DNA of 44,864 nt from Clostridia bacterium (GTDB lineage: Bacteria; Bacillota; Clostridia; Christensenellales; Aristaeellaceae): positions 1 to 44,864 of the forward strand of contig DAITOE010000001.1 of the NCBI GenBank assembly GCA_036834245.1, in the 5' to 3' direction. The notes beneath the pieces were generated by a model, which made no database searches, was not told the origin of the DNA, and was given only the letters and a program-made list of their open reading frames with translations. Shown here one piece after another: positions 2,559-41,844 of this stretch; the stretch's first letter is position 1, and the number at the start of each line of letters is the position of its first letter. Both the position numbers and the translations under genes were made by a program.

Positions 2559-3607
2559 ACCGCGCCATGCTGGAAGCCAGGCTCAAGGACACCGCGGCCG
2601 CTTTCAGCCAGGAAGGCTATTTCCCCTCCCTGTCCCTGTCCGTGTTCACCAAAGACGATATCCTCATCCGCCACACCCTGGGGGAGGCCCGGGCAGACAG
2701 CCTCTTTGACATCGCCTCCCTCACCAAGATTGCAACCGCTACCATGGTCCTGGGCCTGGTGGAGCAGGGCATCCTGGCCCTGGACACCCCCCTGGCAGCG
2801 GCCGACCCAGTTCTCTTCCAAACCGGCGCCCTGGGGGAGGCCCTGGGGGGCATCACCATCTTCCAGCTGCTCACCCACACCGCCACCCTTCCTGCCTGGT
2901 ACCCCGTCTACACCCAGCCGGATTTCCCCGCCGCCCTGCAGCAAGCCCTCAGCATGGACCGGCCCCAGGGGGTCAACTACTCCGACCTCAACTTCATGAT
3001 CCTGGCCCGGGTGCTGAAGGCCCGGGGCCGGACGGACCAAAGCGGCAGCCCCTTGGGCCCGATGCTGTGCCAGCCCCTGGGCATCACCGGCATGTACGAC
3101 GCCCTGCCTCCGGCACTCATGGACAAAGCCATCCCCTCTGGCTACGGCAACCCCCAGGAGGAGGCCATGTGCGCCCGGATGGGCCTCGCCTTCACCGGCT
3201 TCCGGCCTCACAGCGCAATCAAAGGGGAGGTTCACGACGGCAATGCCCATTACGCCTTTTACCGGCAGTTTGCGGGCCACGCCGGCATTTTCTCCGACAT
3301 GGACAGCCTCGTCACCCTGACGCAGCACCATTTGGCCACCGATTCCACCCTGTTCATCACCGCCACGGAAGAACAGGCCGAGGGCCGGGGCCTGGGCTGG
3401 CAGGTGGGGGAGATGTACCCCATGGGCTGCGGCCACACCGGCTTCACCGGCACCAGCATCTACCTGTCCCGGCAGCTGGACATCGGCTGCGTCCTCCTCA
3501 CCAACCGCTGCTATTACCAAAACCAGGACCACAAGCTCACCAACCCCTTCCGCACCCGGGTCCACCACCTGGTGGCGGACTACGCACAAGCGCAGCAAAG
3601 GGCATAG
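2555..3607 (+). CDS. Serine hydrolase of the beta-lactamase/PBP (S12) family; possible AmiE-like muropeptide amidase or DD-peptidase
   Basis: It has the SxxK motif (IASLTK), a YxN-like motif (NYSDLN) and an HTG box (GHTGFTGTS). It overlaps the murQ stop by 4 nt and ends 1 nt before anmK. An alternative ATG start is at 2567. Confidence 0.75.
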   Translation: MNRAMLEARLKDTAAAFSQEGYFPSLSLSVFTKDDILIRHTLGEARADSLFDIASLTKIATATMVLGLVEQGILALDTPLAAADPVLFQTGALGEALGGITIFQLLTHTATLPAWYPVYTQPDFPAALQQALSMDRPQGVNYSDLNFMILARVLKARGRTDQSGSPLGPMLCQPLGITGMYDALPPALMDKAIPSGYGNPQEEAMCARMGLAFTGFRPHSAIKGEVHDGNAHYAFYRQFAGHAGIFSDMDSLVTLTQHHLATDSTLFITATEEQAEGRGLGWQVGEMYPMGCGHTGFTGTSIYLSRQLDIGCVLLTNRCYYQNQDHKLTNPFRTRVHHLVADYAQAQQRA

Positions 3608-6365: not shown

Positions 6366-6445
6366 GACCGACGGGACGGGGGACCTTGGGGGCTTCGCCC
6401 CCAAACCCCCGCCCGGGGCCATTGGCCCCGGACCCCGGAATCTCA
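6366..6445 (+). repeat. Intergenic repeat family B, copy 1 (G-rich head + GGGGGCTTCGCCCCC hairpin + CCGGGGCCATTGGCCCCGG palindrome)
   Basis: It starts directly after the TAA at 6363-6365. About 75-80 percent of positions are identical by eye to the reverse complements of 30779-30873 and 39594-39686. Confidence 0.85.
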
Positions 6446-6593: not shown

Positions 6594-7544
6594 ATGAAAA
6601 CGCCCCAGGGCAACCTGCGTCCCGGCAAATCAACCCGGGCCTGGCGCTATTTGCACAACAACTGGCAGCTCTACCTCATGATGCTGCTGCCCCTCATATA
6701 TTTCCTGTTGTTCAAATATGTGCCCATGTTTGGCAACATCCTGGCCTTCCGCCGTTTCAAGCCCTTGACCGGCCCCTTCGGGGTGCGCTGGGAAGGCCTG
6801 CGCTATTTCAACCAGTTTTTGTCCCAGCCGGATTTCTGGCGCGCCTTCTCCAACACCCTCACCCTGGCGGCCCTCAACCTCATCATCAACTTTCCCATGC
6901 CCATCATCTTCGCCATCCTCTTAAACGAGCTGCGCTCCCTGCGCTTCAAGAAGCTGGTGCAGACGGTCAGCTATATGCCCCGCTTTGTGTCCACCGTGGT
7001 GGTCATCTCCATCCTGGGGGAACTGCTGTCCCCCTCCTCTGGCGCCTTGAACCGGCTCATCCAGCAGCTCACCGGGGCCAAGCCCGTCTTTTATATGAAT
7101 GAAGCTGCCTATTTCCGGCCCCTGTACATCCTCACCGACATGTGGCAGTACACGGGCTGGTCCGCCATCATTTACCTGGCGGCCATCACCGGCATCAACA
7201 ACGACCTGTTTGAGGCCGCCCGCATCGACGGCGCCAACCGGACACAGCTGATCCGCTACGTCACCCTGCCCACCATCCTGCCCACCATCATGGTGATGTT
7301 CATTTTACGGGTGGGGCACCTGCTGTCCCTGGGCTTTGAAAAAATCCTGCTGATGTATACCCCGGCCAATTCCATGGTGTCGGACATCATCGACACCTAT
7401 GTCTACCGGATGTCCGTGGCGGCCACAGCCCCCCAGTACAGCTACGCCACCGCCATCGGCCTCTTCTCCGGCATCATCGGCCTGGTGCTGGTCACCTCCA
7501 GCAACCTGCTCTCCCGCCGCCTCACCGGCGAGGGCATCTATTAA
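6594..7544 (+). CDS. ABC transporter permease, LplB-like (MalF-type, carbohydrate uptake)
   Basis: 316 aa. It has the N-terminal WQLYLMMLLPLIYFLLFKYVPMFGNILAFRRF signature of LplB-type permeases and an EAA loop (FEAARIDGANRTQLIRYVTLP). Confidence 0.85.
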   Translation: MKTPQGNLRPGKSTRAWRYLHNNWQLYLMMLLPLIYFLLFKYVPMFGNILAFRRFKPLTGPFGVRWEGLRYFNQFLSQPDFWRAFSNTLTLAALNLIINFPMPIIFAILLNELRSLRFKKLVQTVSYMPRFVSTVVVISILGELLSPSSGALNRLIQQLTGAKPVFYMNEAAYFRPLYILTDMWQYTGWSAIIYLAAITGINNDLFEAARIDGANRTQLIRYVTLPTILPTIMVMFILRVGHLLSLGFEKILLMYTPANSMVSDIIDTYVYRMSVAATAPQYSYATAIGLFSGIIGLVLVTSSNLLSRRLTGEGIY

Positions 7545-7554
7545 GGGGGCCGCC

Positions 7555-8427
7555 ATGAAAACACACGTCATCAAGGACAAAAGCCCCATCCTGGACGTCT
7601 TCATCTGGATCACCATGATCCTGGTGCTCCTGGCCTGCGTGACGCCCTTCCTGTACATCATCGCCATGTCCTTCTCCTCCTCCCGGGCCATCCTCAACAA
7701 CCGGGTCTCCCTCTGGCCCGTGGGCTTCAATGTGGATGCCTACCGCCAGGTCTTCGCCTACCCCAATTTTTTCAAGGCCTACGGGCACACCCTGTTTTAC
7801 ACCTTTTTCGGCACCCTGATTGCCCTGGTGATGATGGTGCTCTTCGCCTACCCCCTGAGCAAAAAACGCCTGAAGGGCCAGCCCATCGTGATGAAGCTGG
7901 TGGTCTTTTCCATGTTCTTCGGCGGCGGCCTGGTGCCCAACTACCTGCTGATTTCCTCCCTGCGCCTGGTGAACACCGTCTATGCCATCCTGCTGCCCTT
8001 TGCCATCAACCAGTTCAACCTCATCATCCTCATCAATTTTATCCGCTCTATCCCCGAGGAACTGGAGGAAGCCGCCCGCATCGACGGCCTCAACTATTTC
8101 GGCATCCTGATCAAAATCATCGTGCCTCTGCTCACCGCCGCCCTGGCCACCGTGGGCCTCTACACCGCCGTCTTCTTCTGGAACGACTGGTTCTACGCCC
8201 TCATCTACCTGCGCAGCCCCCAGTACCCCGTCATGCTGCTGCTGCGCAACATCGTCAACGGCACCACCATGGTGGGGGAGGCCGGCGGCGTGGGGGAGAA
8301 GGCCTCCGTGGCCATCGCCATCAAGTCCTCCGTCATCATCTCCTCCACCCTGCCCATCATCCTGCTGTATCCCTTCCTGCAGAAGTATTTCGTCAAGGGC
8401 ATGCTGGTGGGGGCTGTGAAAGGATAG
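7555..8427 (+). CDS. ABC transporter permease, LplC-like (MalG-type, carbohydrate uptake)
   Basis: The internal ATG at 7555 (MKTHVIKDKSPILDVFIWI) lies 10 nt after the upstream stop. The sequence upstream in the track ORF is Pro/Ser/Ala-rich junk. The EAA loop is EEAARIDGLNYFGILIKIIVP. Confidence 0.85.
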   Translation: MKTHVIKDKSPILDVFIWITMILVLLACVTPFLYIIAMSFSSSRAILNNRVSLWPVGFNVDAYRQVFAYPNFFKAYGHTLFYTFFGTLIALVMMVLFAYPLSKKRLKGQPIVMKLVVFSMFFGGGLVPNYLLISSLRLVNTVYAILLPFAINQFNLIILINFIRSIPEELEEAARIDGLNYFGILIKIIVPLLTAALATVGLYTAVFFWNDWFYALIYLRSPQYPVMLLLRNIVNGTTMVGEAGGVGEKASVAIAIKSSVIISSTLPIILLYPFLQKYFVKGMLVGAVKG

Positions 8428-8514
8428 GACGGGAACGGGGAACGGGGAACGGGGAAACGGGGAGACGCCTACCTTTTTTGAAAAAAAGGTAGGGCCAAAA
8501 AACTTTGATAGGGG
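8428..8514 (+). repeat. Intergenic repeat family A, copy 1 (GGGGAAC x3 G-rich head + CCTACCTTTTTTGAAAAAAAGGTAGG hairpin + CAAAAAACTTTGATAGGGG tail)
   Basis: It starts directly after the TAG at 8425-8427. The 26-nt hairpin at 8468-8493 is identical to the reverse complement of 37605-37630. The head and tail are also shared with the reverse complement of 41345-41417. Confidence 0.85.
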
Positions 8515-8554
8515 TATTTTCGGCTCAAGATTATATGGATTGATGCCCCAGCAG

Positions 8555-8591
8555 CAAACAGGCTGCCGCGTTTCGTGCGGCAGCCTGTTTG
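8555..8591. terminator. Strong hairpin between convergent genes (15-bp stem CAAACAGGCTGCCGC / GCGGCAGCCTGTTTG, 7-nt loop)
   Basis: A perfect inverted repeat read from the sequence, located between the lplC-like gene (+) and the bceB-like gene (-). The A/T runs at the stem ends would give U tracts in either direction. Confidence 0.6.
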
Positions 8592-8604
8592 TTCTATCAT
8601 GCAG

Positions 8605-10701
8605 TTAAGCTGGCTGGTTCACAATCTTGTAGTAGGTCTGGGCGGTTTTCAGGTAGATGCCCAGGTAGATCAGGCTGAAGGCCAGGAAGGTGATGAGGGT
8701 CACCACCGCGTACAGGCCCCGGTTGGACAGGGAGAAGAGGTCCAGGATCAGGGTCAAAATGTTGAAGGCCATCAGGGTGTGGACGGCGGCGGCCACCAGG
8801 GGCAGGAAGAACACCAGCAGCACCTGGCTTTTGATGGAGTGCTTCACCTCCCTCTGGCTCATCCCCACCTGGCGCAGGATAGTGAAGCGGCCTGCGTCCT
8901 CATAGCCCTCGGACACCTGCTTGTAGTAGATGATCAGCACCATGGCCATCATGAACAGGAGACCCAGGAACACCGCCACAAAGAGCAGCCCGCCGAACAT
9001 GGCGTTGAACTCCGCCTTCATCAGGGCAGCGTGCTGGAAATTGGAGGAGAAAGAGCCGGGCCGTTCCTCCAGCACCAGCTGGCTGATGCGCTGCTGGGCC
9101 CGGTTGTAAAAGGCGTCCACCCGCTCTGTGGACTGGGTGCCGGTGTCAAAGGCATAGACCCTGGAAAACTGCAGCCCGTAGCCTTCCCAATCCTCCCGGG
9201 TGGGGAAGATCTCCCCTGCTTCCGCCGCCTCGGCAGACAGCCGGGCGTACAGGTTGTCATCATACAGGGCAACAATCCGCCTGATGTCCTGCTCCTTCAT
9301 CACCAGCAGCGGGCTGACCACATGGTCCATCCGCACACTTTCCGTGATGGGGAAAAAGCCGCTCAGCCGCTCCTTGATATGAAGCTGCTGGCCAAAGAGG
9401 CTGAAGCTGTCCGGCAGCCGGTAGCTGTCCTGGGAATAGGCCAGCACCTCCCAGTCATCAAGCTGCAAGTCGCGCCCGATGACCTTGCCGTAGTCCTCCG
9501 CCGGCACAAAGGTGACCGGGCCGTTTGCATGGGGCAGGTAGTTTTCGATGCTGTGGGCATCGCTGCTGTCCACCCCCCGGTCCATCTCCTTATTGAAGGA
9601 GGCCCAGAGCTGGGTGGTGCGGTAGCGGATCTCGTTGGACATGGAGATGTCCAGGTTTTCTGCCTCCTCCTTAATGATGGCGATGGCCTGCCGGTCCAGG
9701 TCCGTGTCCGCGGTGATGTCCGTCTTGAGTACTGCGTCCCGGCCCAGGGTGTCCCGGATGTGGTGGCTGGTGCCGATAAACAGGCTGGCGGTGGTGGAGA
9801 TCATCACCAGCACCATGGTGGACAGGATGCAGATGGTGGCCAGGCCGGTGGCGTTGCGCTTCATCCGGTGGATGAGGCCCGCCACCACGGAGAAATGCCG
9901 GGGCTGATAGTAGAACCTTTTGTTTTTTCTCAGCGCCTTCAGCAGGCTCACCGAGCCCGCCAGAAAGAGGGCATAGGTGCCCAGAATCACCAGCAGCACG
10001 GCGATGAAGAAGGACTGGTAGCCCTGGATGACATCCCTGGCCGATAGGGAGAGGTAGTAGCCGGCCCCCAGGGACAGAAGGCCAAAGAGGGCCAGCCACA
10101 CCCGGGCCGGGGGGTCCTTCTCGCCCAGGCTTTCCGCCCGCAGCAGCTCCGCCGGCTTGACTCCGGCCACCTGGCGCAGGGCATTGAGCAGGGTCAGCCC
10201 GTGGATGATGAGGAAGAGGATCACCGTGCCCCAGTAGGCCTGCTGGGGGATGTGCAGCTGGGGTACCAGGCCGCTGCCTAGCAGGCGCAGCAGGATCATG
10301 TACAAGAGCTTCGCAAACACCATCCCCAGGCCGATGCCCAGGGCCAGGGTGATTGCGGCCGTCAACAGGGTCTCATGCAGCAGCACCCGGCCGATGTGCC
10401 GCTTTTCCATCCCCAGGACGGCATACAGGCCCAGCTCCTTCTTCCGCTGGCGCATCAGGAAGCTGTGGGTGTAAAACACCACGATGACAGAGAACACCAT
10501 CATCACATAGCTGCCAAACTCCAGGTTGCGCCGCAGGGTGCGGGCGCCGTAGATCTCCGTCAAGGAATCGGTGCCCGCCAGGGTCTGGAGCAGGAAATAC
10601 ATCATGACAATCCCCGCGCAGGACAGCAGGTAGGGCAGGCTGGCCCGGCGGTTGCGCACCAGGCCCCGGAGGGCCAGGGAGGAATACAGCCGCCGTTTCA
10701 T
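8605..10701 (-). CDS. BceB-type ABC transporter permease (FtsX-domain, about 10 TM, large extracellular loop)
   Basis: 698 aa. It starts MKRRLYSSLALRGLVRNRRASLPYLLS, has a long soluble insertion between hydrophobic blocks, and overlaps the upstream ATPase stop (ATGA). Confidence 0.85.
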   Translation of the reverse strand: MKRRLYSSLALRGLVRNRRASLPYLLSCAGIVMMYFLLQTLAGTDSLTEIYGARTLRRNLEFGSYVMMVFSVIVVFYTHSFLMRQRKKELGLYAVLGMEKRHIGRVLLHETLLTAAITLALGIGLGMVFAKLLYMILLRLLGSGLVPQLHIPQQAYWGTVILFLIIHGLTLLNALRQVAGVKPAELLRAESLGEKDPPARVWLALFGLLSLGAGYYLSLSARDVIQGYQSFFIAVLLVILGTYALFLAGSVSLLKALRKNKRFYYQPRHFSVVAGLIHRMKRNATGLATICILSTMVLVMISTTASLFIGTSHHIRDTLGRDAVLKTDITADTDLDRQAIAIIKEEAENLDISMSNEIRYRTTQLWASFNKEMDRGVDSSDAHSIENYLPHANGPVTFVPAEDYGKVIGRDLQLDDWEVLAYSQDSYRLPDSFSLFGQQLHIKERLSGFFPITESVRMDHVVSPLLVMKEQDIRRIVALYDDNLYARLSAEAAEAGEIFPTREDWEGYGLQFSRVYAFDTGTQSTERVDAFYNRAQQRISQLVLEERPGSFSSNFQHAALMKAEFNAMFGGLLFVAVFLGLLFMMAMVLIIYYKQVSEGYEDAGRFTILRQVGMSQREVKHSIKSQVLLVFFLPLVAAAVHTLMAFNILTLILDLFSLSNRGLYAVVTLITFLAFSLIYLGIYLKTAQTYYKIVNQPA

Positions 10702-30778: not shown

Positions 30779-30873
30779 AGATAAACTACCGGGGTCCGGG
30801 GCCGATGGCCCCGGGCTGGGGGTTTGGGGGATGCAATCCCCCAAGGTCTTCGGACTTTCCCGTTCCTTCGTCC
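30779..30873 (-). repeat. Intergenic repeat family B, copy 2 (oriented with the aquaporin gene)
   Basis: The reverse complement reads TAG-GGACGAAGGAACGGGAAAG...CCTTGGGGGATTGCATCCCCCAAACCCCCAGCCCGGGGCCATCGGCCCCGGACCCCGGTAGTTTATCT. It begins at the stop codon at 30874-30876. Confidence 0.85.
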
Positions 30874-36523: not shown

Positions 36524-37543
36524 ATGAAGGCCTTTCAGCCTGATTTCAACCAGCTGCTGACGGTGCTGGACCGGAAGGCGCCCAGCCGGCCAGTGCTGTT
36601 TGAATTGTTCATGAACTACCCCCTCTACGCCCGGGTGCTGGGGGAGGACTTCCGCCACACCAGCCGGCTGGAGGATTTGCGCTTTGTGGTGCGGGCATTT
36701 GAGAAGATGGGCTATGACTATGCCACGGCCCATGCCTCCTCCTTCCGTTTCGGGGTGGACCTGGTGAAGAAGGAGACCCGCTCCCTCAACGACAGCGCCG
36801 GCATCCACGACGAGGAGAGTTTCCTGGCCTATCCCTGGCCGGACCCGGAGGATTACAGCTGCGAGGTGCTGACAGACATCAAGCCCGATTTGCCTGACGG
36901 GATGCAGCTGATGCTGATGGGCCCCGGGGGCGTGCTGGAAAACGTGATTGAGCTGGTGGGCTACGAGCCCCTGTGCCTGATGGTGTATGACGAACCGGAG
37001 CTGGCCCAGCAGATTTTTGACGCCGTGGGCTCCCGGCTGCTGCGGTATTACGAACTGGCCCTGGAGCACGACAGCGTGGGCCTGGTGTCTTCCAATGACG
37101 ACTGGGGCTTCAACATGCAGCCCTTCTTAAGCCCTGAGATGATGCGGCAGTACGTCTTCCCCTGGCACCAGAAAATCGTGCAAGCGGTCCATGCGGCCGG
37201 GCGCAGGGTGTTCCTGCACTCCTGCGGCAACCTGCGCAGCGTGATGGCGGACGTCATCGGGATGGGCTATGACGCCAAGCACTCCTTTGAGGACAAGATC
37301 CAGCCCATTGAGGAGGCCTACGAGGAATATGGCGCCCGGATCGCCCTGCTGGGGGGCATCGACGTGGACTACCTGTGCAGCCACAGCCCGGAGGACATCT
37401 ACCGCCGCACCATGAAGATGCTGGAGCGCACGGCGGACCGGGGCGGCTGGGCGGTGGGCAGCGGCAACAGCATCCCGGAATACATCCCCCATGACGCCCT
37501 GTTTGCTATGCAAAAAGCGGCCCGGGACTTCGTGCGCTCATAG
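36524..37543 (+). CDS. Uroporphyrinogen-decarboxylase (URO-D) superfamily protein, function unknown
   Basis: 339 aa, starting 3 nt after the permease stop. The overall pattern (PSRPVLFELFMN..., DDWGFNMQPFLSPEMMRQYVFPWHQKIV, HSCGNL, GGWAVGSGNSIPEYIP) resembles clostridial URO-D/MtaA-like family proteins. The family call is from memory. Confidence 0.55.
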   Translation: MKAFQPDFNQLLTVLDRKAPSRPVLFELFMNYPLYARVLGEDFRHTSRLEDLRFVVRAFEKMGYDYATAHASSFRFGVDLVKKETRSLNDSAGIHDEESFLAYPWPDPEDYSCEVLTDIKPDLPDGMQLMLMGPGGVLENVIELVGYEPLCLMVYDEPELAQQIFDAVGSRLLRYYELALEHDSVGLVSSNDDWGFNMQPFLSPEMMRQYVFPWHQKIVQAVHAAGRRVFLHSCGNLRSVMADVIGMGYDAKHSFEDKIQPIEEAYEEYGARIALLGGIDVDYLCSHSPEDIYRRTMKMLERTADRGGWAVGSGNSIPEYIPHDALFAMQKAARDFVRS

Positions 37544-37590
37544 CGCACGCCATCGGAGGCCGCAACTAACTCTTCAATAAACTCAAATAC

Positions 37591-37654
37591 TAAAGTTTTT
37601 TGGTCCTACCTTTTTTTCAAAAAAGGTAGGCGTTCTTTAATCCCGTCTACCGTC
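37591..37654 (-). repeat. Intergenic repeat family A, copy 2 (oriented with the P-type ATPase gene)
   Basis: The reverse complement reads TAG-GACGGTAGACGGGATTAAAGAACG-CCTACCTTTTTTGAAAAAAAGGTAGG-ACCAAAAAACTTTAG. The hairpin is at 37605-37630. It lies between convergent genes. Confidence 0.85.
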
Positions 37655-39526
37655 CTACACCCCGGGCAGGGCGCAGGCCTGGCAGCCGGGGGGCACCCGG
37701 AGGGCGCGCATGGCATTGAGGATGGCCAGGACGGCGACCCCGACGTCGGCAAAGACGGCCATCCAGAGGGTGGACAGACCCAGGGTGGAGAGGATGAGGA
37801 CCAGGACCTTGACGCCGATGGCGAAGGCGGCGTTTTGCTTGGCGATCCGGAGGGTCTTGCGGGAGATGGTGAGGGCGGCGGCCATTTTGCAGGGGTCGTC
37901 ATTCATGATGACGATGTCCGCGGCCTCGATGGCGGCGTCGGAGCCCAGGGCGCCCATGGCAAAGCCCACATCGGCCCGGGCCAGGACGGGGGCGTCGTTG
38001 ACGCCGTCCCCGGCGAAAACCAGCTTGCCCTTTCTGCCGGGGGCCTCCAGCAGCTCTTCTACTTTGAGCACCTTGTCCTGGGGCAGCAGGCCGGTGTGGA
38101 CCACGTCGATGTCCAATTCAGCGGCCACCTGGCCAGCGCTTCTGGCATTGTCCCCGGTGAGCATCACCAACTGGCGGATGCCCTGCTGCTTGAGGCGGGC
38201 CAGGGCCTCCCTGGCGCAGGGCTTCACGGTGTCCTCCACGGTGATAAAGCCGATGTAGGCGCCGTCACGGGCTACATGGCTGACGGTGCCGCTGTGGTCT
38301 GATTCCGGCAGGGGGATGCCGTGGGCGGCCATGAGGCGGGGGTTGCCCAGCAGCACGGTGTGCCCGTTGACGCGGGCTTTGACGCCGCCGCCGGGCATCT
38401 CTTCCACATCGGTTACCAGGCTGGCGTCCAGCTCCCGGCCGTGGGCGGCCCTGATGGCGGCGCCGATGGGGTGGAGGGAGTGGATCTCCGCGTGGGCGGC
38501 CAGGCGCAGCAGCTCGGCCTCGGTGACGCCTAGGGGCTGAAGGTCGGTCACGGTGAAGCTGCCCCGGGTGAGGGTGCCGGTTTTGTCAAAGACAAAGGTG
38601 TCCGCCTGGGCCAGGGCCTCCAGGTAGTTGGAGCCCTTCACCAGGATGCCGGCCCGGGAGGCGCCGCCGATGCCGCCGAAAAAGGCCAGGGGGATGGAGA
38701 TCACCAGGGCACAGGGGCAGGACACCACCAGGAAGTTGAGGGCCCGGTACACCCAGTCGGACAGCTGGGCGCCGGGGATGAAGAGGGGCGGGACAAAGGC
38801 CAGCAGCAGGGCCAGGATCACCACCACCGGGGTGTAAACGGCGGAAAACCGGGTGATGAAGGCTTCCTGGCGGGATTTTTTGTCGGTGGCGTTTTCCACC
38901 ATCTCCAGGATGCGGCTGACGGTGGACTGGTGGAAGGGCTTGGTAACCTGCACGGTGAGGACCCCGGTGAGGTTGACGCAGCCGGAGAGGACCTCATCCC
39001 CGGTGTTCACCTCCCGGGGCAGGGACTCCCCGGTGAGGGCGGCGGTGTCCAGCTGGCTGGTGCCGGAGACGACGATGCCGTCCAGGGGCAGGCGCTCCCC
39101 GGGGCGCAGCAGGATGCGGCTGCCAACGGGCACTTCTTCGGGGTCCACCAACAGGGTGTCCCCGGCTTCGGTGAGCAGGTTCGCGCTGTCAGGCCGCAGG
39201 TCCATGGCGCCGGCGATGGAACGGCGGGACTTGTCCAGGGCGTGGTGCTCAAACATCTCCCCGGTCTGGAAAAAGACCATCACGGCCACGGCCTCGGCGT
39301 ATTCCCCGATGACGATGGCACCGATGGTGGCCAGGGACATGAGGAAGTTCTCGTCAAAGACCTGGCCCCGGAGGATGCCCTGGAGGGCGCCCCACAGGAC
39401 GTCATAGCCGGCGATGAAGTAACTGAGGAGGAACAGGGGGATGGCCACGGCCGAGCTGGCGCGGAACAACAGCCCTGCAATCAGTAAAAGCAGGGCTGCG
39501 GGGATGCGGTAGATTCGTTTTGTCAT
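37655..39526 (-). CDS. Heavy-metal translocating P1B-type ATPase (Cd/Zn/Co-type, CadA-like) lacking an N-terminal metal-binding domain
   Basis: 623 aa. It has the CPC motif (VSCPCALVISIP), DKTGTLT, MLTGDN and GDGVNDAPVLA. Confidence 0.9.
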   Translation of the reverse strand: MTKRIYRIPAALLLLIAGLLFRASSAVAIPLFLLSYFIAGYDVLWGALQGILRGQVFDENFLMSLATIGAIVIGEYAEAVAVMVFFQTGEMFEHHALDKSRRSIAGAMDLRPDSANLLTEAGDTLLVDPEEVPVGSRILLRPGERLPLDGIVVSGTSQLDTAALTGESLPREVNTGDEVLSGCVNLTGVLTVQVTKPFHQSTVSRILEMVENATDKKSRQEAFITRFSAVYTPVVVILALLLAFVPPLFIPGAQLSDWVYRALNFLVVSCPCALVISIPLAFFGGIGGASRAGILVKGSNYLEALAQADTFVFDKTGTLTRGSFTVTDLQPLGVTEAELLRLAAHAEIHSLHPIGAAIRAAHGRELDASLVTDVEEMPGGGVKARVNGHTVLLGNPRLMAAHGIPLPESDHSGTVSHVARDGAYIGFITVEDTVKPCAREALARLKQQGIRQLVMLTGDNARSAGQVAAELDIDVVHTGLLPQDKVLKVEELLEAPGRKGKLVFAGDGVNDAPVLARADVGFAMGALGSDAAIEAADIVIMNDDPCKMAAALTISRKTLRIAKQNAAFAIGVKVLVLILSTLGLSTLWMAVFADVGVAVLAILNAMRALRVPPGCQACALPGV

Positions 39527-39593: not shown

Positions 39594-39686
39594 AGATAAA
39601 TATTGGGGTCCGGGGCCAATGGCCCCGGGCTGGGGGCCAGGGGGATGCAGTCCCCCTGCGTACCCTTTGGTCTTTCCTCCCCGTCC
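39594..39686 (-). repeat. Intergenic repeat family B, copy 3 (between the HMA gene and the ATPase gene)
   Basis: The reverse complement reads TAG-GGACGGGGAGGAAAGACC...CAGGGGGACTGCATCCCCCTGGCCCCCAGCCCGGGGCCATTGGCCCCGGACCCCAATATTTATCT. It begins at the stop codon at 39687-39689. Confidence 0.85.
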
Positions 39687-41249: not shown

Positions 41250-41266
41250 CAAAAGGGCGCACACAA

Positions 41267-41302
41267 AACCCGGGCTGCAGCTAATGAGTTACAGCCCGGG
41301 TT
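41267..41302 (+). terminator. Intrinsic terminator after the 4Fe-4S gene (AACCCGGGCTG ... CAGCCCGGGTT + TTTTT)
   Basis: An 11-bp perfect stem with a 14-nt loop, followed by a run of T, 18 nt after the stop. Confidence 0.7.
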
Positions 41303-41344
41303 TTTTTATATTGACCCCATGTGACAACCAATCCAGAAAACAGC

Positions 41345-41417
41345 CCTATTAAAGTTTTTTGCGCACTTTTTTTCAAAAAAGTGCCGTTTTCTCCGTTCCC
41401 ATCCCCGTTTTCCGTCC
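41345..41417 (-). repeat. Intergenic repeat family A, copy 3 (oriented with the ArsR-family gene)
   Basis: The reverse complement reads TAA-GGACGGAAAACGGGGATGGGAACGGAGAAAACG-GCACTTTTTTGAAAAAAAGTGC-GCAAAAAACTTTAATAGGGCTG. The T6-G-A7 core is conserved, and the stem base is changed from CCTACC/GGTAGG to GCAC/GTGC (compensatory). Confidence 0.8.
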
Positions 41418-41780
41418 TTACACCATCTCCTCCATGGCGTGCTCGACGCAGCCGGTGAGCATCTGGCTGACGTGCTCATCGGCCAGGGAATAGAAGATGT
41501 TTTTGCCGTCCCGGCGGGATTTGACCAGTTTGTTGTCCCGGAGGCGTGCCAGCTGGTGGCTGACGGCGGAGACGCTCATGCCCAGGAGGTTGGCCAGGTC
41601 GCAGACGCACAGCTCGTGCTTGTCCAGGGCGAAGAGGATGCGGAAGCGGGTGTTATCGCCCATGACCTTGAAGAAGTTGGCGGAGGCGGAGAAGAGGCTG
41701 TCGCTGAGCATCAGGGCGTGGACGGCCTGGACGGCCTCCTCGTGGACCAGGGTGCCCTCGCAGATATAGCGCTTTTCCAT
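41418..41780 (-). CDS. ArsR/SmtB-family metalloregulator (CadC-like)
   Basis: The start MEKRYICEG at 41780 follows AAGGAGG. The HTH is ELCVCDLANLLGMSVSAVSHQLARLRDNKLV, with the CVC metal-sensing motif. Confidence 0.85.
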   Translation of the reverse strand: MEKRYICEGTLVHEEAVQAVHALMLSDSLFSASANFFKVMGDNTRFRILFALDKHELCVCDLANLLGMSVSAVSHQLARLRDNKLVKSRRDGKNIFYSLADEHVSQMLTGCVEHAMEEMV

Positions 41781-41844
41781 AGCTGCCTCCTTGTATACAA
41801 TGCTCACCATCATCCTATCACGCTGGTATAGGAGGGGTCAAGAA

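Follow-up and report, generated by a model that had tools for sequence, protein, structure and literature searches.

Short repeats with the potential to fold into an intrastrand triple helix have been described in E. coli and other Proteobacteria under the names BoxC, PIT elements, and TM_ECO (Holder et al. 2015, PMC4666352, citing Hoyne and Maher), and they are the nearest described systems to the repeat reported here. For the ITxF search of that work, an intrastrand triplex motif was defined as three blocks of 6-15 nt with no more than one mismatch, separated by loops of 1-6 nt. In class II a pyrimidine block is followed by a purine block and a reverse-Hoogsteen block, and in class III a purine block is followed by a pyrimidine block and a Hoogsteen block (PMC4666352). 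The repeat, called family A, is present in a 44,864-nt stretch of DNA from a Clostridia bacterium of the Aristaeellaceae (positions 1 to 44,864 of contig DAITOE010000001.1), and this whole stretch is referred to as the window. A unit of family A consists of a stem that is free to vary in sequence, a fixed apex C-T(n)-G-A(n+1)-G, 1-3 linker bases, and a fixed mirror tail C-A(n)-C-TTT. Family A is probably (with a probability of about 0.6) a short-stem interspersed repeat, comparable to repetitive extragenic palindromic (REP) and BoxC elements, that keeps the folded shape of a hairpin plus a third strand. In other words, it would be a potential intrastrand triplex. No paper describing the family was found.

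Like BoxC, the present family consists of short, intergenic, interspersed three-block repeats in which a hairpin is accompanied by a segment mirroring one of its arms. Both occur in tens of copies per genome, are distributed very unevenly between close relatives, and are not associated with a mobile-element gene. BoxC has no known promoter or terminator activity, as is the case for the present family. However, the two differ in several respects. BoxC is G+C-rich with the consensus CCCTCNCCC-N3-6-GGGNGAGGG-N3-GGGNGAGGG, whereas the fixed part of the present family is A/T. No copy holds the BoxC consensus, and the arms differ. Family A lacks a third strand for its G+C stem, and its relatives with longer stems join pyrimidine-type and purine-type segments in one third strand. 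Furthermore, BoxC has no strand bias relative to genes, whereas copies in the source genus are sense-oriented and abut stop codons.

An earlier note on this DNA had placed three copies of family A at 8428-8514 (+), 37591-37654 (-), and 41345-41417 (-). All three were confirmed in the sequence, and each begins at the first base 3' of a stop codon. The 26-nt hairpin CCTACC-T6-G-A7-GGTAGG is identical in copies 1 and 2. The replacement of the GC part of the stem by GCAC/GTGC in copy 3, with the core kept, is also real, and it represents one of many complementary stem variants; the copy 3 hairpin forms 9 pairs and a UGAA loop in RNA folding. In copy 1 the tail is the mirror of the apex, and the A-run of the tail matches the T-run in length. 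The core TTTTTTGAAAAAAA occurs 3 times in the window versus 0.00 in 100 shuffles, and the tail pattern occurs exactly 3 times versus 0.03 expected. Thus, a chance origin of the three copies is excluded. The expectation of a true repeat family with more copies was confirmed by a profile search of the source genome (G000), a draft of 1.95 Mb in 306 contigs with 61% G+C and 83.6% completeness, which returned 15 copies (E <= 2.6e-6). The proposed non-random orientation relative to genes holds in this genome as well. At least 12 of the 15 copies lie directly behind a co-oriented open reading frame (ORF) with a strong coding signal, gene calls here and throughout being crude ORF heuristics, and a convergent gene end occurs within 300 nt of 13 of the 15.

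The idea that the structure of the stem is kept by compensatory change was borne out by covariation over 227 distinct copies. Stem positions 2, 3, 4, and 5 are paired in 96, 83, 85, and 70% of the copies versus 38-45% with shuffled partners. All four Watson-Crick pair types are present at each of these positions, and the pair adjoining the core is an invariant C:G. The constant parts are the apex and the tail, whose run lengths are coupled. The T-run, the A-run, and the tail A-run measure 5, 6, and 5 in 135 copies, 6, 7, and 6 in 44, and 4, 5, and 4 in 14. The A-run is one base longer than the T-run in 201 of the 227 copies, and the tail A-run equals the T-run in 211, tallies that come partly from patterns fixing minimum run lengths. 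Both main run-length classes coexist inside single genomes. The linker of family A (1-3 nt) is longer where the stem (4-6 pairs) is longer.

The mirror relation was analysed in 44 long-stem relatives from 11 of the 24 species of the genus, one of them on contig C8. In these relatives, the segment between the hairpin and AAAACTTT mirrors the 3' arm and does not complement it, as in GGGGAGAGAAC-TTTTGAAAAA-GTTCTCTCCCC-gta-CCCCTCTCTTC-AAAACTTT. The mirror score is 5.41 versus 3.53 +/- 0.16 in shuffles (shuffle maximum 4.00). Because the segment is a mirror of the 3' arm rather than its Watson-Crick partner, it resembles a third strand and not one side of an alternative hairpin. With the A-run included in the mirror, the third segment repeats the base of the 3' arm in 76% of positions for A, 86% for C, and 66% for T, while G mostly gives way to T (41%) or C (30%). 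This base-copying pattern points to C+.GC and T.AT triplets, with T opposite C-G inversions (T.CG), in the base-proximal part where the purines lie in the 5' arm, and to A.AT triplets along the T:A part, whose purines are in the 3' arm. A third strand that runs from foot to apex has the direction demanded by each motif, since it would lie parallel to the first purine strand and antiparallel to the second. PMC4666352 is the source of the motif classes, and the reference list of PMC2532714 includes work on alternate-strand recognition and on the T.CG triple. The tail A(n)-C-TTT likewise mirrors the apex TTT-G-A(n). This relation is preserved in sub-families with a different apex, where the arm AAGAAT|GCCCCC is matched by CCCCC|TAAGAA and an arm lacking the T has a tail that lacks it as well. 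Family A retains only the A-run part of the third strand. The constraint that is kept would be a folded nucleic-acid shape in which the downstream segment is laid along the hairpin as a third strand, and from the base choices we infer that a triple helix may actually form.

Both ITxF block orders are represented. The T(n)-A(n+1)-A(n) order of family A is that of class II, and the purine arm, pyrimidine arm, and mirrored pyrimidine segment of the long-stem relatives follow the order of class III. With respect to the block and loop limits, copy 3 fits (blocks of 6, loops of 2 and 6), and so do the long-stem relatives (10-17 aligned positions, turns of 1-4 nt). Copies 1 and 2 lie outside the limits with a second loop (right arm plus linker) of 9 nt, and the common T5/A6/A5 class has blocks of 5.

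Several points weigh against the triplex interpretation. As family A has no third-strand segment for its G+C stem, 1-3 bases would have to carry the A-tail across 4-6 pairs. Neutral pH is unfavourable to runs of C+.GC triplets. In the gene-sense strand, A.AT triplets belong to the purine motif, which was reported not to form in RNA, and the BoxC triplex itself was seen solely in isolated single strands and not in vivo (PMC4666352). The copies are phylogenetically non-independent, and the run-length coupling carries the pattern dependence mentioned above. With crude ORF calls, no orientation bias was found outside the source genus and two genomes rich in copies (G250 and G284). Five metagenome contigs carry the arsR locus of copy 3 without any change and hence revealed no polymorphism, and no record of the permease protein upstream of copy 1 was found. 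Finally, neither a mobilising enzyme nor a target duplication was found, nor was a clean empty site whose flanks could be aligned.

Gene ends gain and lose copies. The permease gene upstream of copy 1 has orthologues in G020 (85% identical) and G022 (84%) that end in the same stop codon, and the element is absent from both. In 8 sister species, arsR is followed by 15-25 nt and then by a terminator matching that of the window, again with no element, and the window holds about 110 extra bases between arsR and this terminator. The cadA orthologue of G013 (77% identical), in turn, bears the element at the same site as copy 2. Its stem is CCCACC/GGaTGGG versus CCTACC/GGTAGG in copy 2, and its tail has decayed. 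The compensatory change in the G013 copy indicates that some copies are old and that their stems are maintained.

The family is far more widespread than the window shows: it spans phyla, it is patchy, and it turns over. The core-plus-tail pattern occurs in 8 of the 24 species of the genus, in none of the 17 genomes of other genera among the relatives searched, and in 10 of 301 sampled genomes of the order. It appears in bursts, with 45, 29, and 20 copies in G096, G250, and G284, and most congeners have none, among them ten element-free congeners of G250 and G284. A scan of one genome per species yielded at least 120 stretches among the matches listed. The carriers among these matches include Acutalibacter, Ruminococcus, Faecalibacterium, Anaerotignum, Christensenellaceae, and Defluviitaleaceae of the Clostridia; Komagataeibacter, Novacetimonas, Acetobacter, and Acidocella of the Acetobacteraceae; and Bacteroidales, Aminicenantes, Desulfatibacillaceae, Cloacimonadota, and Poribacteria. 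Acutalibacter sp. 1XD8-33, Komagataeibacter xylinus, and Acetobacter musti are cultivable carriers. No match to the family was found in phage records.

The sequence 5' of the hairpin is specific to the lineage. It consists of G-rich runs in the source genus, tandem 28-nt hairpin units in G250 and G284, tandem GGGTACGCGCTTTTG in G096, and a GGGG-loop-CCCC hairpin plus mirrored CCCC in many other genomes. At loci L039-L056 of G250 and G284, one to five of the tandem units (GGGGACGCTGTCCCCGCACCCC...) precede the family-A hairpin and tail, and a nearly identical terminator (AAATTCGCTCGGCG...CGCCGAGCGAATTTTT) follows the tail. The whole gene-end cassette appears to have been copied in these two genomes. 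In the Acetobacteraceae (Acetobacter, Komagataeibacter; L135, L154, L169, L186), two units with different stems stand back to back with their tails pointing outward. The back-to-back form also occurs on plasmids of Komagataeibacter and Novacetimonas, two of which were typed as conjugative, and the L169 pair lies inside a longer palindrome (CCTGAAGAGAAA...TTTTCTTCAGG). In draft genomes, elements are often located within a few hundred bases of contig ends. The repeats therefore probably break assemblies, making copy numbers in metagenome-assembled genomes lower bounds.

Family A belongs, as the branch with short stems, to a modular superfamily of interspersed repeats that are small and non-coding. 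In family-A copies of the source genome, a G-rich head fills the entire 13-41-nt gap between stop codon and stem. Such a head follows 59 of the 1958 coding-like ORF ends in that genome, with a consensus T-R-R overlapping AGGAC(G/C)G, and the stop codon is TAG at 35 of these 59 ends versus 531 of all 1958. About three quarters of the 59 heads lead, by reading, into a hairpin module, which is family A, family B, or a longer stem with the centre TTTTGAAAA, TTCTTGAAAGAA, or CTTTTCTGAAGAAAAG. Nearly all of these modules terminate in AAAACTTT. Family B has the form GGGGG-loop-CCCCC followed by a mirrored ACCCCC, in other words a G+C triplex-type module of the same superfamily. Its copy at 6366-6445 in the window separates a binding-protein gene from the permease genes, and a second copy separates an HMA-domain gene from the ATPase gene.

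The abutment of the head on the stop codon could reflect a target preference for T-R-R plus G, a stop codon borne by the element, or a functional need. A canonical G-quadruplex motif is present upstream in 4 of 11 source-genome elements checked. The heads look like slippage products. On contig C36 of the source genome, a perfect (GGGGAC)x7 microsatellite runs from a TGA stop into an GCTGGGGGC hairpin, behind an ORF that ends near base 1061 (minus-strand reading). A role of the GGA-rich head as a CsrA sponge was rejected, as no csrA was found in the 84%-complete source genome. Read-through translation of the head into the TGA of the hairpin was likewise rejected, the frame being inconsistent among copies by reading. 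The source genome encodes Rho on contig C165 (1129-1341), in a 663-aa open frame that far exceeds E. coli Rho in length. Its presence is relevant to the idea of an antisense rut site for Rho, because the antisense strand of the heads is C-rich and G-poor. Between one inverted pair of elements on contig C9 lies a 296-aa ORF, by eye an ordinary FMN-dependent dehydrogenase. Copy 3 and a copy on contig C112 remain alike for ~45 nt past the tail, with 84% identity over 84 nt, and their shared stretch (window 41310-41345, minus strand; C112 ~3345-3390) holds the near-palindrome TTGTCACATGGGGTCAA / TTGACAATCATGGGGTCA. An additional module may thus be present in this sub-family.

Coordinates of the family-A copies, their upstream genes and downstream terminators, and the related family-B copies in the window.
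Feature	Position	Strand	Basis or detail
Copy 1, G-rich head	8428-8467	+	quasi-tandem GGGGAAC units (sequence); starts right after TAG 8425-8427
Copy 1, hairpin CCTACC-T6-G-A7-GGTAGG	8468-8493	+	11 pairs, UGAA loop; fold, stem covariation
Copy 1, CCTACC	8468-8473	+	hairpin part
Copy 1, T6	8474-8479	+	hairpin part
Copy 1, G	8480	+	hairpin part
Copy 1, A7	8481-8487	+	hairpin part
Copy 1, GGTAGG	8488-8493	+	hairpin part
Copy 1, linker GCC	8494-8496	+	
Copy 1, tail A6-C-TTT	8497-8506	+	
Copy 2, whole	37592-37654	-	stop TAG 37657-37655
Copy 2, head	37654-37631	-	
Copy 2, hairpin	37630-37605	-	followed by linker ACC
Copy 2, tail A6-C-TTT	37601-37592	-	
Copy 3, whole	41351-41417	-	stop TAA 41420-41418
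Copy 3, head	41417-41385	-	
Copy 3, hairpin GCAC-T6-G-A7-GTGC	41384-41363	-	followed by linker GC
Copy 3, GCAC	41384-41381	-	hairpin part
Copy 3, T6-G-A7	41380-41367	-	hairpin part
Copy 3, GTGC	41366-41363	-	hairpin part
Copy 3, tail A6-C-TTT	41360-41351	-	
Gene upstream of copy 1, ABC-transporter inner-membrane permease	7399-8427	+	stop TAG 8425-8427; weak Pfam BPD_transp_1
Gene upstream of copy 2, P-type (heavy-metal type) ATPase	37655-39526	-	stop TAG 37657-37655
Gene upstream of copy 3, ArsR-family regulator	41418-41813	-	stop TAA 41420-41418
Two-way terminator hairpin after copy 1	8553-8593	.	18 pairs, outside the repeat; fold of 8460-8600, z-score -5.85
Native terminator after copy 2	37517-37563	-	then UUUUUG; fold; overlaps end of convergent gene 36524-37543
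Native terminator after copy 3	41262-41307	-	approximate bounds; fold
Family B copy	6366-6445	+	shares post-stop G-rich head
Family B copy	30779-30873	-	shares post-stop G-rich head
Family B copy	39594-39686	-	shares post-stop G-rich head

The three genes upstream of the window copies are functionally unrelated and therefore form no common regulon. The permease upstream of copy 1 scores 24.5 bits against BPD_transp_1, just below the curated cut-off of 26.4. In folding, a separate, much stronger hairpin with a U-run is located 30-50 nt downstream of all three copies. The terminator after copy 1 is common to the convergent gene at 8605-10701, and the one after copy 3 is orthologous to the terminators directly following arsR in sister species. 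With these real terminators downstream, the element occupies the interval from the stop codon to the terminator that belongs to the gene itself. The earlier note was correct that an A-run and not a U-run follows the hairpin in the gene sense of copies 1-3. Its claim that the element is not a textbook intrinsic terminator stands too, with GCC-A6 following the copy 1 hairpin and a terminator scan finding none in 8380-8640. From their placement exactly between stop codon and terminator, copies in the source genus would most likely be transcribed within the 3' untranslated region (3'-UTR).

What would such an element do? One possibility, unlikely although it survives best among the alternatives, is that family A is a host-selected RNA element of the 3'-UTR. 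The hairpin, possibly in combination with a head G-quadruplex, would block 3'-to-5' exonucleases or hold terminating ribosomes and would thereby tune the stability or output of the upstream gene, the mirror tail being incidental. REP hairpins tune the stability and output of upstream genes in E. coli operons, and the sense orientation of family A and its site ahead of the terminator are consistent with a similar role. The family B copy at 6366-6445, between binding-protein and permease genes, is comparable to the malE-malF REP. The main hairpins of the three copies are stable (-9.6 to -14.1 kcal/mol), and the cadA copy persisted, with a compensatory change, while the genes diverged by about 23%. 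However, most orthologous genes in sister species lack the element, the family is patchy even within genera, and many other taxa show no orientation bias. G:U pairs, moreover, are rare (10 of 908 stem cells); the wobble-pair asymmetry bearing on which strand folds is 3 versus 8 internal cases. Selection on the RNA hairpin also leaves the mirror rule and the three-way coupling of run lengths unexplained. With family A read as a potential intrastrand triplex, the likeliest effect on the host would, by analogy, still be that of a stable 3'-UTR structure slowing 3'-to-5' decay, as REP hairpins do.

Small plasmids bear on a second, quite improbable alternative, in which the element acts as a signal in single-stranded DNA. 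A 44-nt unit of the family-A type, AAAGTTTTTGG-GGTTGCC-T6-C-A5-GGCAAGG, is present once per plasmid, at 91-100% identity, in small plasmids of Enterococcus, Staphylococcus, Streptococcus, and Bacillus, and pER371 and pJAM1 are among its carriers. It is common to plasmids of five genera (L251-L254 compared), several of which carry Rep or Mob genes. According to this alternative, the folded strand would be exposed during replication, transfer, or transcription and would function like a single-strand origin (sso), as a roadblock to replication or transcription, or as an R-loop anchor, with the G-rich head helping to open the duplex. The conservation of the plasmid unit favours such a role. The order of the plasmid strand, T(n)...T(n+1)-A(n), would allow pH-independent T.AT triplets, triplex rules that require DNA fit the data, and BoxC oligonucleotides fold as DNA. 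In the Enterococcus plasmid, the unit adjoins boxes that, by reading against those in PMC4598088, resemble the RSB and CS-6 boxes of ssoA. However, no literature statement placing the unit in an sso was found, and the units on plasmids could be passengers. For chromosomal copies, no need for priming signals is known, and nothing in this analysis shows R-loops or pausing. The plasmid unit is thus a lead towards a role in single-stranded DNA and not a demonstration. In S. aureus pKKS49 (L252), the unit is flanked by two G+C triplex-type modules, CCCCC-N8-GGGGG-TT-GGGGG and CCCCCC-N8-GGGGGG-TTA-GGGGG, which are missing from L251, L253, and L254 and so provide a filled-versus-empty comparison. A CTTGATA word just upstream resembles the pC194-type nick site.

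The earlier note had also proposed that the T-run may pair with either A-run as a switch. The link between the run lengths stood, and the switch did not. In a riboswitch or attenuator-like RNA with two exclusive folds, the T-run and both A-runs would co-vary in length, as they do, and a C usually precedes the A-run of the family-A tail, giving T(n)G:CA(n). Fold energies make the switch implausible, because the alternative U6G:CA6 helix reaches only -1.4 kcal/mol versus the -9.6 to -14.1 kcal/mol of the main hairpin. In the long-stem relatives, furthermore, a variable base precedes the tail A-run, and an 11-13-pair G+C stem would have to open for the alternative fold to form. No Rfam family matches at the gathering score in the window, and four carrier loci gave chance-level hits at permissive thresholds. 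A two-fold RNA is accordingly very hard to credit.

The least credible explanation is that the element is a promoter, a terminator, or a protein-binding site of the ordinary kind. In its favour, TTGAAA is similar to a -35 box, the copy 1 tail overlaps with one weak promoter-like match, and copies 2 and 3 are flagged in antisense as weak terminator-like sites. However, the spacing from TTGAAA to a -10-like hexamer shifts with stem length, the promoter-like match is not common to other copies, the sense strand lacks a U-run, the antisense T-richness is absent in copy 1 and most copies, and the upstream genes form no regulon. A mini-ORF or a promoter inside the element was rejected on the same ground of a spacing that varies with stem length. 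Literature searches with the core and tail strings returned unrelated matches only.

No enzyme could be tied to the family in searches with two protein families. The Y1/RAYT transposase domain (PF01797) had no match in G000 or G023. Weak single matches to it occur in G096, G250, and G284 and also in G002, which has no family-A copy by pattern search. A RAYT link was rejected because the PF01797 loci hold no elements and the matches do not track copy number. The DUF559 nuclease (PF04480) had no match in G000, G004, G096, G250, or G284, while control genomes responded. By the criteria for miniature inverted-repeat transposable elements (MITEs), family A consists of single units without inverted termini, and no target-site duplication was shown. 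TAGGG-like words stand inconsistently at both ends of some copies. For the stop codon as a candidate target-site duplication, with CTT-TAA/TAG/TGA after the tail, the matches are at chance level by reading.

Other known systems share some of these features. REP elements and bacterial interspersed mosaic elements (BIMEs) of Enterobacteria and Pseudomonas, which are mobilised by RAYT (TnpA_REP), are extragenic hairpins located between convergent genes and inside operons, are transcribed in 3' untranslated regions, and combine modules in mosaics, all of which resembles the present family. However, the family lacks the conserved 5' GT[AG]G tetranucleotide (the bases 5' of the stem are ACG in the source genus and CTG, CGC, or CAC elsewhere), has far fewer copies, and has no RAYT gene flanked by copies, and its mirror tail has no counterpart in REP. 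MITEs such as Correia/NEMIS of Neisseria are likewise small, non-autonomous, and patchy, with bursts in single genomes, and the back-to-back Acetobacteraceae units resemble terminal inverted repeats. In contrast, the source genome has single units without terminal inverted repeats, and no parent insertion sequence was found. The sso elements of rolling-circle plasmids are also orientation-dependent folded DNA signals, and a family-A-type unit stands beside ssoA-like boxes, but an sso is ~160 nt long, present once per plasmid, and primed by RNA polymerase, whereas the family-A unit is 45 nt, chromosomal, and multi-copy. The elements for nuclear expression (ENEs) of MALAT1 and PAN are triple-helix RNA stabilisers made of two U-rich strands and one A-rich tail. 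The present family would likewise be a structure at transcript 3' ends that clamps an A-rich or U-rich strand along a helix. The difference from an ENE is that the sense strand of family A has one U-run and two A-runs.

A more far-reaching and distinctly doubtful possibility is that the superfamily is a natural alternate-strand intramolecular triple helix kept across phyla for work at gene ends or in single-stranded replicons. The third strand would read the purine-left stem in the pyrimidine motif and then cross to the T:A apex in the purine motif, and the stop-abutting G-rich head would belong to the mechanism. Possible roles would be the sealing of transcript or DNA 3' ends, the arrest of polymerases, or the seeding of lagging-strand priming.

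If the fold proposed for family A and its relatives is real, they would constitute a widespread family that varies by the rules of the triple helix, including which base stands opposite an inverted pair and a switch of motif within a single strand. Ordinary gene ends of bacteria, and small plasmids, would then hold a structure known mostly from the test tube and from a few eukaryotic RNAs. The family is a marker of gene 3' ends and probably breaks metagenome assemblies, and it could pass for terminators or small RNAs in annotation. Because it is present in cultivable strains of Acutalibacter, Komagataeibacter, and Acetobacter, its function is directly testable.

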